Under the pieces are notes generated by a model. The model ran no database searches. It was not told the DNA's origin and was given only the letters and a program-made list of their open reading frames with translations. A stretch of 64,000 nucleotides of DNA from Eledone cirrhosa. Taxonomy: Eukaryota. Both the position numbers and the translations under genes were made by a program. Numbering within the stretch: position 1 is the first letter of the stretch; the number at the start of each line of letters is the position of its first letter. The DNA is taken from NCBI GenBank assembly GCA_964016885.1, contig OZ024741.1:269948001-270012000 (forward strand), read 5' to 3'. Shown in pieces: positions 36,223-55,570 of this stretch.

Positions 36223-36283
<61 letters not shown>

Positions 36284-36284
<1 letters not shown>

Positions 36285-36470
36285 CGTTTCTACTTTTTAG
36301 CACAAGGCCAGCAATTACCCAGTGTATTACTGGCACTTTATTTTATTGACCCCCGTAAGGATGAAAGACAAAGTTAACCTCAGCGGGATTTGAACTCAGA
36401 ATGGCAAGGGCCGTAACTCTATGCGTCAAAGCATGGCGTCCGACCCTCTACCGATACTGCCAATCCACTC
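36284..36470 (-). mobile_element. SINE family A flanked by (AAT)n
   Basis: A and B boxes, the central block and the tail. Confidence 0.85.
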
Positions 36471-37355
36471 ATCATTATAATTATAATAATAATAATAAGG
36501 TTTTCTTTATTAACCACAAGGGTTTACATAAAGTAGACATTAAGGACAGTACATGACAATACAGGACGGTACAAATGGGCATTTCTGCGTGTAAAAAAAA
36601 ACAGAGGATGAAATAAAATAACAAAGAAAAATTCCCCAATAGGGGGGAGACTTCCGAGGGACATTTGTGGAGAAAGCCCATTAAAAGACCACAGTGGCCC
36701 TGACCACCAGGGCAAGTGCCCTCTCCCAGTTTTCCACCTTTAATTTACAGACACATACTCAGAGAAGGCCCATTCATTCGGGCCATACTTGCTTCTCTCA
36801 CCCATCTTTCAACAAAATGCTGGGAAGAGAGCACTTCCCTCTCTACCCTGACCTTCCTTTTCAGATGAAATTTGAAAAAGTTAATCAGGGCCTCACCGAA
36901 GAGGTAAGTGCTCGTCTTCAGCTCTTTCAAACGTGTCCACCATACTATCTCTTTCGCCATGGCCACCAGACAGATAAAAACTGCCTGCCCTTCCCGGCTA
37001 AAGGAAGAGGGCGCGGAAATCCTCACGATGGACTCAGCTGATAGCTGGATCCGTCCTACACGTGACAGCAGGTGTTCGACATAAACCCACAAGTCAGCAA
37101 TGCTCGGACACTGGACGAGTGCGTGCAGGACGGTTTCGTCGCCCTGCGCGCATCTCGGACATGCCCGGCTGACGGCACCTCCATGTGTAAAAAAACAGAG
37201 GATGTAATAAAAAAATAACAATGAAAAATTCCCCAATAGGGGGGAGACTTCCGAGGGACATTTGTGGAGAAAGCCCATTAAAAGGCCACAGTGAGCCTGA
37301 CCACCAGGGCAAGTGCCCTCTCCCAGTTTTCCACCTTTAATTTACAGACAGATAC

Positions 37356-52099: not shown

Positions 52100-55000
52100 A
52101 TGCATAACATCTGGAACGAGAGTGGTCTATTTAAATTAGATGAACAAAAATTGGCCGGGCAGGCTCGGGTAATAAGAACTAATGGGTGGATAAGCGAGCT
52201 GGAACTGGAGGAACTGAGCAGAGAGATTAGCTTGGAGATGGAGAGTGGAGTATGCCAGGTAAACAAGCCAGTGGGAAATGAAGGTGAAGAGGTCGAGAGA
52301 ACGGAAGAACCACCCGAAGCAGATAATGATCTGAATGCTGAAATAAATAATACCTGGAACAGAGATACGGCCACTGACGGGCTAGGACAAGATTTGGTTG
52401 ATATCCTAAACTTAGTGGTAGATGAATTGAACAATGATAGTGGGAAACCTATGAACCTAAGATTTGTAGACAGGAAAAAGTTAAAAGAAACAACAGCTAA
52501 GGTAAACAAAGTCATCCCATACCTTGAGGCGAGGAGCCTTCACCAGTGCAACAATATCCTCAAAGCAACAGCAAATACGGTGAGGAAATTATTTGGTATA
52601 AAAGCGAGAGGAAACAACAAACAAGAAAGATCAGAGCCTTGGTGGAAGAAACGACTGAGTGGTCAAATCAGGGAAATGAGAAATGACATTGGAAAGCTTG
52701 AGTCCCTACTGAATGGGACACTAAAAAACATAGACACTAAAAATAGACTGGAAATAAAGTACAAAACTAGGAGGAAAAAGCTAAATATTATCATAGAGAA
52801 ACTGAAGCAACGCATTGTAGCAAAGAGTGCAAAAATCAGGCGATACGAGAACAGAGTCAGTCAGTATAGACAGAACCGCATGTTCGACAACAACCAGAAG
52901 ATGCTGTTTGGACAGCTTGAAGGGAAAGAAAGAGGCAACGACTTGATCCCTGAGGCGGAACAAACTAAAACATTCTGGAAAGGAATATGGGAGCAGGATG
53001 TTAAACATAATGACCAGGCAATGTGGATTGAAACAGTACAGAAGGAGATTAGTGAACAGGCACACCAACAAACTGATTTGAGTATCACAGTTGAAACTCT
53101 TAAGGGGCAGGCCAAAAAACTAACCAACTGGAAATCACCAGGCCCAGATGGTGTGCAGGCGTATTGGATTAAAAATATAACATCCCTCCACCCGAAACTG
53201 ACAACCATGTTCAATGACTGCTTGATGTCAGGTGAGGTACCAGAGTGGTTGACAAAAGGTACCACAGTTCTGATAATGAAAGACCGAATCAAGGGTATTG
53301 ATGTTACCAACTATAGCCCTATCACATGTCTGTCCGTAATGTGGAAACTGGTTGACAAGCATTATGTCTGAGGAAATCTACCATCACCTCCACACAAACA
53401 ACTTGTTACCGGACGAACAGAAAAGATGCCGAAAGAAGTCCCGTGGTACAAAGGACCAGTTACTTATTGATAAGATGGTAATGAGGAATTGCAAGAGGAG
53501 ACACACTGGTCTTGCCATGGGATGGATACACTACAAAAAGGCATTTGACATGGTGCCTCATTCCTGGATCACCAAAAGCCTGGAGATCTTCAGGGTGGCA
53601 GATAACATCAGACAGTTGTTGGGCAAAAGTATGAAGTCCTGGGAAACAGAGTTAACATCAGCTGGAGAATCCTTGGGAAGCGTGAAGATCAAGAGAGGTA
53701 TCTTCCAGGGAGATAGTCTGTCCCCTCTGTTGTTTGTCCTTGCCCTGATGCCCCTGAGCAGTGTACTGCGAAAAGTGAGAGCAGGATACAGGTTGGGAAA
53801 AGGAGGGCTTACCATCAATCACCTCCTCTTCATGGACGATCTTAAGCTCTTCGGGAAGAGTGAGAAGGAGTTGGATGTGCTTGTTGACACTGTACGTATT
53901 TTCAGCAATGATATATGTATGCAATTTGGTATTAGTAAGTGTGGAGTCCTTGTGATGAAGAGGGGTAAATTGAGCAGAAGTAACGGAATCCAGGTACCAA
54001 CAGGTGAGATGATAAAGGAAATTGACACTGAAGAAGGATACAAGTATTTGGTGTTCTGGAGGCTGATGACATCAAGAACAAAAAAATGAAGGAATTGATA
54101 AGAACTGAATACATTCGGAGAGTAAGGAGCGTATTAAAGTCACATCTGAACAGTAGGAATGCCATAAGTGCAGTAAATTCCCGAGCTGTGTCTATTATTA
54201 GGTACAGTGCGGGAATTCTGAGATGGAATGTTGCTGAACGAAAAGAAATGGATAGGAATAATAGGAAGCTATTGACTATCTACAACATGTTCCACAAGAG
54301 GAGTGATGTCGATAGACTCTACTTAAGGAGATCTGAAGGTGGAAGAGGTCTTATCAGCATAGAGGACTGTGTTCAGATGGAGAAAAACAACCTACACAAA
54401 TACGTGACTGATAGTAAGGAGCCAATGCTCAGAACTGTACTGAAGGAGGGGACAATAGACCAGGGGATTCCAAGGAGGAAATAACATCAAGGAGAAAGAG
54501 CAGCCTTCAGGAAAAATCCCTTCAAAGTACCTTCTTTGAGAAAACTGAATTCAGAGATCCACAGACATGGAACTGGTTAAAAAGAGGAGACCTTAAAAAG
54601 GCTACAGAAGGAATGTTAATGGCTGCGCAGGAGCAGGCCCTCAAAACGAAGTGGTTGAAACACCATATTTACAAGGAGGAGGCTAGCCCACTGTGCAGGA
54701 TCTGTGGAGGGAGAGAGGAGACTGTGGCTCACATTGTATCCGAGTGTAAACACCTAGCCAAGACTCACTATAAGGGTTGGAGACATGATGTGATGGGCAG
54801 GGTGATCCACTGGCACCTATGCAAAGTAAACAATTCACCACATTCTGAGAAGTGGTATGAGCATAAGCCAGAGTCGGTGATAGAAAACGATCAGGTGAAG
54901 GTGCTGTGGGATTTTAGGATACAGACGGACAAGAAACTGGAACACAATAGACCTGACCTGGTGGTTTTGGACAAAGAAAAAAGATCGTGCCTGATTGTGG

Positions 55001-55340
55001 ATGTGGCCTGCCCATTCGACACGAGAGTGCAAGAGAAGGAGAGGGAGAAAATTAACCGATACCAGGACTTAAAGTGGGAGGTGAAAAGGATTTGGAACTG
55101 CCATGAAGTCAAAGTGGTCTCGATTGTCATAGGCGCACTAGGGACTATCTCAAAATGTTTCCAGGGATAGTTAAAGAAAATTGGCCCATTCACGCTTTTT
55201 GGAACGCTTCAAAAGGCATGCTTGCTGGGAACAGCAAGAACCCACCTATACGTCCTGAATATCTGAGGCTGCAGGTAGTGGCTTGATATTCATTTCAACA
55301 AACTTTCCAGTCAACTAACATCAATGACTGAGACTCAAAG
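52100..55340 (+). mobile_element. Older 5'-truncated R4/Dong family 2 copy (frameshifts, 15-bp deletion, premature stop)
   Basis: Colinear with 48139-51396, followed by an (AAT/AAC)n tail at 55341-55409. Confidence 0.92.
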
Positions 55341-55407
55341 AATAATAATAATAATAACAACAATAATAACAACAACAATAATAATAACAACAACAACAAT
55401 AATAATA

Positions 55408-55570
55408 ATTGTTTCTACTTTTGGCACAAGGCCAGCAATTATTCCAGTACATTACTGGTACTTTATTTTATCGACCCCGTAAGGATGAAAAGCAAAGTTA
55501 ACCTTGGCTGGATTTGAACTCAGACCATAAAGGGCCGTAACTCTTTGCTGCAAAGCATGTCGTCCGACCC
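55408..55570 (-). mobile_element. SINE family A lying tail-to-tail with the Dong array
   Basis: Central block and 3' end motifs. Confidence 0.85.

Follow-up and report, generated by a model that had tools for sequence, protein, structure and literature searches.

Seven retrotransposons of three kinds stacked within one AAT repeat of Eledone cirrhosa

A stacked array in one trinucleotide repeat

The window analysed here is a 64,000-nt stretch of the Eledone cirrhosa genome (assembly GCA_964016885.1, contig OZ024741.1, forward strand positions 269,948,001 to 270,012,000), and it holds seven elements of three kinds, namely a short interspersed element (SINE), a Tx1-type long interspersed element (LINE) and Dong/R4-type elements, that sit stacked within one AAT repeat. 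Element order and strands were taken from six-frame open reading frames (ORFs), self-BLAST and Pfam, and the runs at the junctions were located by a regex scan and Tandem Repeats Finder; all positions are those of the window. The array opens at 36238-36284 with an (AAT)15 run that adjoins (AT)11 and is the 3′ tail, read on the minus strand, of SINE 1, a near full-length minus-strand copy at 36285-36468 with 88.6% identity to a copy at 20804-20991. An imperfect AAT run (36469-36498) separates the 5′ end of SINE 1 from the 3′ end of a broken Tx1-type LINE of the apurinic/apyrimidinic endonuclease (APE) kind, also on the minus strand (36499-42894). The 5′ end of this LINE meets the 5′ end of a Dong/R4-type element, family 1, head-to-head across an (AAT)8 run at 42895-42920. 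The family 1 copy (42919-46469, plus strand) is 5′-truncated and has motifs of a reverse transcriptase (RT), a CCHC knuckle and a restriction-like endonuclease (RLE). An (AAT)26 run (46470-46549) leads to family 2, present as three plus-strand copies: copy a with an intact frame (46550-51395), copy b, a 5′-truncated piece of 589 nt (51447-52035), and copy c, 5′-truncated and frameshifted (52102-55340). Copies a and b are parted by an (AAT/AAC)17 run (51396-51446), copies b and c by an (AAT)22 run interrupted by AAC and ATT (52036-52101). A tail-to-tail (AAT/AAC)23 run (55341-55409) joins copy c to SINE 2, a 5′-truncated minus-strand copy at 55410-55571 with 91.4% identity to the copy at 20804-20991.

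A sequence-only reading of this DNA had listed the elements in this order and on these strands, with AAT/AAC runs at seven junctions, and the scans bear out both the layout and all seven positions. It had also called every run short, which does not hold for lengths that reach 80 nt, and had closed the array at 55570, where we find an eighth junction: (TAA)2 at 55572-55577 links SINE 2 to a minus-strand 3′ fragment of an RTE-type LINE with a partly inverted 5′ piece (55572-55902). By self-BLAST this fragment is 95.5% identical to the 3′ end of a second RTE copy at 56627-56869. Since AAT or ATT runs of at least three units cover only 229 of 44,619 bases (0.51%) outside the array, seven consecutive AAT junctions are not a product of chance. 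The run at 42895-42920 has a 5′ end on either side and is therefore the tail of neither the Tx1-type element nor Dong family 1. All four RLE copies of the window carry (TAA)n on their sense strand at both junctions, while the Tx1-type element, both SINEs and the RTE tails carry ATT.

Just left of the array lies a 5′-truncated RLE-type fragment (35615-36218, minus strand), its 5′ end adjoining the (AT)11. It has no Pfam match, its Atlas matches are unnamed eukaryotic clusters (0.93-0.94), and we presume it to be CRE-like.

Two Dong/R4-type families and their relatives

The open frame of copy a runs from 47896 to 51321, with an ATG at 47929 and 1141 codons. It matches RVT_1 in Pfam and has a CCHC knuckle at residue 952, RPD..D at 1037 and K..Y..L at 1069; family 1 has CCHC and RPD..D..K motifs as in copy a. 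Dong of Bombyx mori, DongAg, DongBg, ostracod Dong1/2 and the R4 clade are built likewise, from one long ORF that encodes an RT, a CCHC knuckle and, at the C-terminus, a PD-(D/E)xK RLE. The nearest solved structures to copy a are R2 proteins, although the RLE stretch aligned weakly. In the Dong/R4 clade the N-terminus is marked by a Myb/SANT-like domain and has no zinc finger; the N-terminal part of copy a has no Pfam match and shows a few conserved W, C, G and R positions in an alignment with 27 homologues. The intact frame reported for copy a is confirmed, but it is uncertain whether all of 46550-47928 belongs to it. This upstream region is 1.38 kb long, whereas it measures 157-396 nt in the 19 relatives that have a flanking run, and it contains a 323-nt tandem duplication as well as ACC- and A-rich tracts. 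It has no match in 80 related loci and only low-complexity matches within the window, and may hide another element. A hepatitis delta virus (HDV)-like ribozyme was looked for at the 5′ end of copy a and gained no support: Rfam gives no ribozyme there, the region folds no better than shuffles, and a descriptor of our own found no credible match at 46548 and chance-like ones elsewhere, though it missed most relatives too.

With 46% identity over 325 RT residues, families 1 and 2 are distinct, as had been proposed. Measured against copy a, copy b has 5 substitutions and no indels in 589 nt (99.15% identity, or 0.85% divergence), whereas copy c, compared over about 3.2 kb, is 5.9% divergent and has 4 indels; the differences among the family 2 copies are mostly transitions. 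Between the AAT run and the intact sequence there are 3 nt of microhomology at the 5′ junction of copy b and 2 nt at that of copy c. Target-primed insertion is expected to leave microhomology of this kind where the 5′ end joins the target.

Contigs and reads of public runs were aligned on 42500-46465, except 42887-42930; the raw-read run among them (X10) gave 5 reads. The one stop and two frameshifts of the family 1 copy are absent from most other copies in these contigs. The family is multi-copy, and in run X4 its depth climbs about 7-fold from 5′ to 3′, as for a family of 5′-truncated copies. The copy in the window lies about 1.2% from contigs of run X1 (40 differences over 3464 letters, three records), and is truncated, since one X1 contig extends 727 letters past the aligned 5′ part.

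To place these elements among relatives, metagenome contigs were scanned with the alignment of copy a and its 27 homologues, which confirmed at least 449 of 578 candidate stretches. The relatives described here are the best 80 of these loci (numbered with an L), all of them collapsed short-read contigs, some with adapter remnants. Where at least 60 nt was present upstream, 21 of 58 relatives have (AAT) of three or more units on the sense strand and 2 have (ATT) of three or more. Downstream, 54 relatives have their whole C-terminus and extend for at least 60 nt beyond it; a run within 600 nt is AAT in 32 of them and ATT in 5. The upstream counts, together with the head-to-head run at 42895-42920, uphold the claim that AAT is the target and not merely a 3′ tail. 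When 59 of the 80 loci were used, 14 of 50 flanks past the run resembled a further Dong-like body, which had the same orientation in 13 cases; this is a rough count because the contigs are collapsed short-read assemblies. This shows that head-to-tail stacking in AAT is common among Dong-like relatives elsewhere.

Published Dong elements behave in the same way. TAA is their target in insects, molluscs and cnidarians (PMC3812793, PMC7998251), and a published primer design relies on sense-strand (TAA)n at their 5′ junction (PMC3774820). The four copies in the window follow this homing habit, and stacking of Dong elements is expected from known biology; junctions in the window and flanks of relatives both agree with the statement that such elements insert into (AAT)n and leave a fresh target. 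What differs from known Dong elements is that two families only 46% alike share one run, that the upstream region of copy a far exceeds that of its relatives and that no HDV-like ribozyme was found at its 5′ end by Rfam or our descriptor.

In a quick unrooted tree of 81 rows, which had no usable root because the two outgroups were saturated, family 1 pairs with L078 (AAT on both sides; SH-aLRT 99) and copy a groups with P0002-P0005 (SH-aLRT 100). Both families fall among unnamed RLE relatives, most of them AAT-flanked where flanks are visible; no named Dong/R4 sequence was among the 120 homologues listed. The same tree bears on the rule, proposed from the window, that RLE elements carry AAT and APE elements ATT on the sense strand. 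This is correct within the window but fails as a general rule: the RLE relatives L027, L029, L030 and L037 clearly, and L031 weakly, carry ATT on the sense strand, L030 alone of the five on both sides, and all five lie within one 13-row subclade (SH-aLRT 95), suggesting that target polarity may have flipped within the Dong-like group. The strand used is thus not tied to the type of endonuclease. L065 had been another candidate for an ATT-flanked relative, but its run proved to be (TTTTA)n.

The 5′ ends of the relatives have features of their own. L045, L048 and L022 have, by eye, a tRNA-like head with the look of A and B boxes right after the flanking repeat, as if a pol III promoter were carried. 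A common structured-looking motif directly follows the AAT run in L006, L007, L009-L012, L014, L016, L017, L019 and L044; it is possibly a 5′ ribozyme, though the HDV descriptor did not fit it.

The Tx1-type element, the SINE and the source of the repeat

The Tx1-type element has an ORF1 at about 41148-42686 (minus strand) with a CCHC knuckle, and pieces of an ORF2 that match Exo_endo_phos, RVT_1 and zf-RVT in Pfam, which is the Tx1 clade layout of ORF1 with CCHC and ORF2 with APE, RT and C-terminal zinc finger. It had been described without mention of damage; we see stops, frameshifts, a deletion in ORF2 and a 590-nt internal duplication near the 3′ end (36595-37185 and 37189-37766, with 26 substitutions in 572 columns). 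Because the copy is broken and the two halves of its duplication have diverged, it appears to be older than Dong family 1 and copies a and b. It is 73-78% alike to an intact relative (P0121), and only three unnamed Tx1-type relatives were found. Viral and prokaryote contigs gave no confirmed Tx1-type protein and no Tx1 relative with readable flanks, and the viral contigs no confirmed Dong protein.

ATT is present on both sides of the Tx1 copy. Within its 5′ region, at 42709-42747 on the minus strand, the SINE 3′ end recurs with (TTA)3 behind it; the two agree in 23 of 29 aligned columns, a score reached by none of 2000 shuffles. Multi-copy depth in runs X4, X5 and X1 is unbroken across this piece, which therefore probably belongs to the 5′ end of the Tx1 family and is perhaps a captured former target. 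If it were a separate repeat, the 5′ flank of the Tx1 copy would again be ATT. A second Tx1-like fragment (62483-63441, plus strand) has 69% DNA likeness to the first and is cut at both ends; the (TC)n/(TCTA)n ahead of it is a Kibi-type repeat.

The window contains about 20 copies or pieces of the SINE, with matches under 40 nt omitted from the end counts. ATT-type hexamers occur no more than 20 nt from 10 of 20 SINE 5′ ends and 7 of 8 3′ ends against a background of 2.2%, whereas AAT-type hexamers are found near none of either (0/20 and 0/8). The sequence-only reading had assigned (ATT)n to this SINE, and half of the 5′ ends carry it too. Of the ten ATT-bearing 5′ ends, two belong to the array and a third (8381) comes from an inverted SINE next to it; with these three set aside, 7 of 18 remain outside the array. 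SINE-ATT-SINE tandems occur at 4047-4404 and 28044-28422. Of the 15 AAT/ATT loci outside the array, 11 adjoin a SINE end (one by eye), 2 belong to RTE and 2 are in (AT)n. The SINE is the main local source of the AAT/ATT target and inserts into the same target. A tRNA-like head and a named central domain mark the tRNA-derived SINEs (octopus OK, OR1 and OR2; Meta or CORE superfamily). SINE 1 has what we take to be a tRNA-type A/B-box look and a resemblance to a Meta domain; Rfam gave no tRNA match for 36200-56000, and the SINE-end pattern had no matches in the metagenome, viral or prokaryote collections. Likeness of 3′ ends was also tried as a guide to the partner of the SINE, and was rejected for RTE, Dong family 1 and Dong family 2, whose scores were reached by 119, 1045 and 1704 of 2000 shuffles, respectively.

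The second RTE-type LINE, near full length and frameshifted, extends from 56627 to about 60590 on the minus strand. A TG/TA microsatellite makes up its 3′ untranslated region and closes with an ATT/GTT run, while its 5′ region holds an ATT-rich run and a poly-T. We weighed the AAT run at 60256-60293 as a 5′ target of this element, but by eye it seems to be internal to the 5′ region. Other repeats of the window include an array of about 11.5 tandem units (23630-24567), each of about 83 nt made up of a fixed stretch and (AC)n(AT)n, and two repeat copies of 89.6% identity at 56233-56411 and 61361-61542, both beside (AT)n-rich runs.

Assembly of the array and its wider meaning

We consider it likely that the array grew by sequential nested insertion into one (ATT)n/(AAT)n run that RTE and SINE tails had started, and that the endonuclease of the Dong elements guided them to it. 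The run would have been supplied by the RTE tail and the abundant SINE, each ending in (ATT)n on its own strand, and the SINE would also have inserted into such runs. A Tx1-type LINE would then have entered in the orientation of the SINE, after which the two Dong/R4 families, with an endonuclease homing to (TAA)n, would have followed in several rounds of target-primed reverse transcription, in the opposite orientation. Each Dong insertion would leave AAT on both sides, from the split target and its own tail, and so a new target; the order of these events is one we infer. Several observations weigh against such a history. No upstream AAT is seen in 37 of the 58 relatives, many of whose contigs break off within the element. 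ATT is missing from half of the SINE 5′ ends. The second Tx1-like fragment does not lie in AAT, being placed after (TC)n/(TCTA)n and before (TATG)n, though these flanks are weak evidence because the fragment is cut at both ends. No read or contig was seen to bridge any junction in the alignment, which skipped 42887-42930, and at several sites the letters private to the family 1 copy have no depth in X4 or X5; this copy was thus not seen there, although a hole in the alignment is no proof of absence.

An assembly artefact is another reading, in favour of which all parts are high-copy repeats joined by microsatellites and no spanning read was seen. We think this very improbable: the copies have diverged by substitution (copies a and b without a single indel), the truncation points show microhomology, family 1 has mutations of its own relative to contigs of other samples, and the two families are only 46% alike in protein. 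A narrower alternative concerns copy b, which could stem from tandem duplication, on the spot, of the last part of copy a or from a template jump in the same insertion. It is nearly identical to the adjoining 3′ end of copy a, has 3 nt of microhomology at the join, and internal tandem duplications are seen in both the Tx1-type element and copy a. The same microhomology is, however, expected from a truncated insertion into AAT, and copy b has the letter of the older copy c at 3 of the 5 differing sites, which fits either history. On balance we find either origin rather doubtful.

How the Tx1-type element and the SINE came to lie in the run can be explained in two ways of about equal standing, which are not exclusive. 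The Tx1 APE endonuclease may be specific for (TTA)n and nick the strand opposite to that nicked by the Dong RLE, with the SINE perhaps using the Tx1 machinery. ATT on both sides of the copy and the SINE 3′ end with (TTA)3 inside its 5′ region, like a captured former target, are in line with this, as are the published Tx1 microsatellite targets, which are pyrimidine-led (TC, TTC, TTCC and TTTC; PMC4494074), and a weak likeness between the Tx1 and SINE 3′ ends (15 of 20 letters, reached by 43 of 2000 shuffles). The proposal is tentative, as it stands on one copy, the second Tx1-like fragment has other flanks, the likeness is marginal and one among five comparisons, and the viral and prokaryote contig searches offered no relative with flanks for comparison. 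It is also possible, if short of an even chance, that the endonuclease used by Tx1 and the SINE is only loosely specific and that sites are chosen through pairing between the nicked strand and an (AUU)n RNA tail, leaving Dong as the only truly site-specific partner; a target-site duplication would then place ATT at the 5′ end. Pairing by microsatellite-like 3′ ends has been proposed for CR1, L2, RTE, I and R1 (PMC6007223) and raises the accuracy of SART1 (PMC7265360), and the SINE 5′ ends also fit, half of them having no ATT and most of their runs being short. On the other side, among APE clades only Tx1 and one other include site-specific elements.

Several known systems resemble parts of this arrangement. 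The microsatellite-specific Tx1 elements Kibi (TC)n, Koshi (TTC)n and the crocodilian (TTCC)n/(TTTC)n group have, like the copy in the window, two ORFs with CCHC in ORF1 and APE, RT and zinc finger in ORF2, and a microsatellite on both sides. In the available part of PMC4494074, where a family qualifies when more than 20% of its flanks are in one repeat type, (TTA)n would fit the series of units but is not among them, and we have one copy. In crocodilians SINEU is mobilised by Tx1-Mar and shares its target preference (PMC4494074), whereas a partnership in our window is indicated by the weak 3′-end likeness and a common ATT tail only. The use of one target by both APE and RLE elements is known from Keno (Tx1, APE) and Utopia (RLE) in U2 snRNA genes (PMC4640811), though there at a gene site with the same 3′ flank and here at a microsatellite on opposite strands. 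Insertion into one simple repeat in opposite directions is likewise known from TRAS1 and SART1 in Bombyx telomeric repeats (PMC7265360), where both elements are telomere-specific and of similar structure; in our window one is of the RLE and the other of the APE type, and the repeat is interstitial and made by SINE tails. TRAS1 and SART1 are both APE elements of the R1 clade.

In the literature searched, which lacked most subscription papers and Repbase, we found no paper on a (TTA)n-targeting Tx1 element or on such a mixed array in a cephalopod. Octopus data serve as context only: a recent annotation of Octopus vulgaris puts the young insertions at 1129 for Dong-R4 and 421 for L1-Tx1 and describes hot spots of transposable elements, with no target analysis in the available portion of its main text (PMC13282606). 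The array is a real and unusually complete example of known behaviour, and the new lead is a possible preference of Tx1 and the SINE for TTA. Only a Tx1 element aiming at an AAT repeat would be new, and that is unproven, as one copy cannot show it. A further-reaching scenario, which we regard as speculative and on the whole unlikely, is that a (TTA)n-specific Tx1 and its abundant partner SINE make (ATT)n sites genome-wide and Dong uses the other strand, a self-feeding community that would build stacks of several families. If this were true, (TTA)n would join the known Tx1 targets, and the locus would offer a natural pair of APE and RLE elements on one trinucleotide repeat for comparing target recognition. 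If the behaviour seen in the array holds genome-wide, it explains the origin of AAT microsatellites and of retrotransposon hot spots in this repeat-rich genome.

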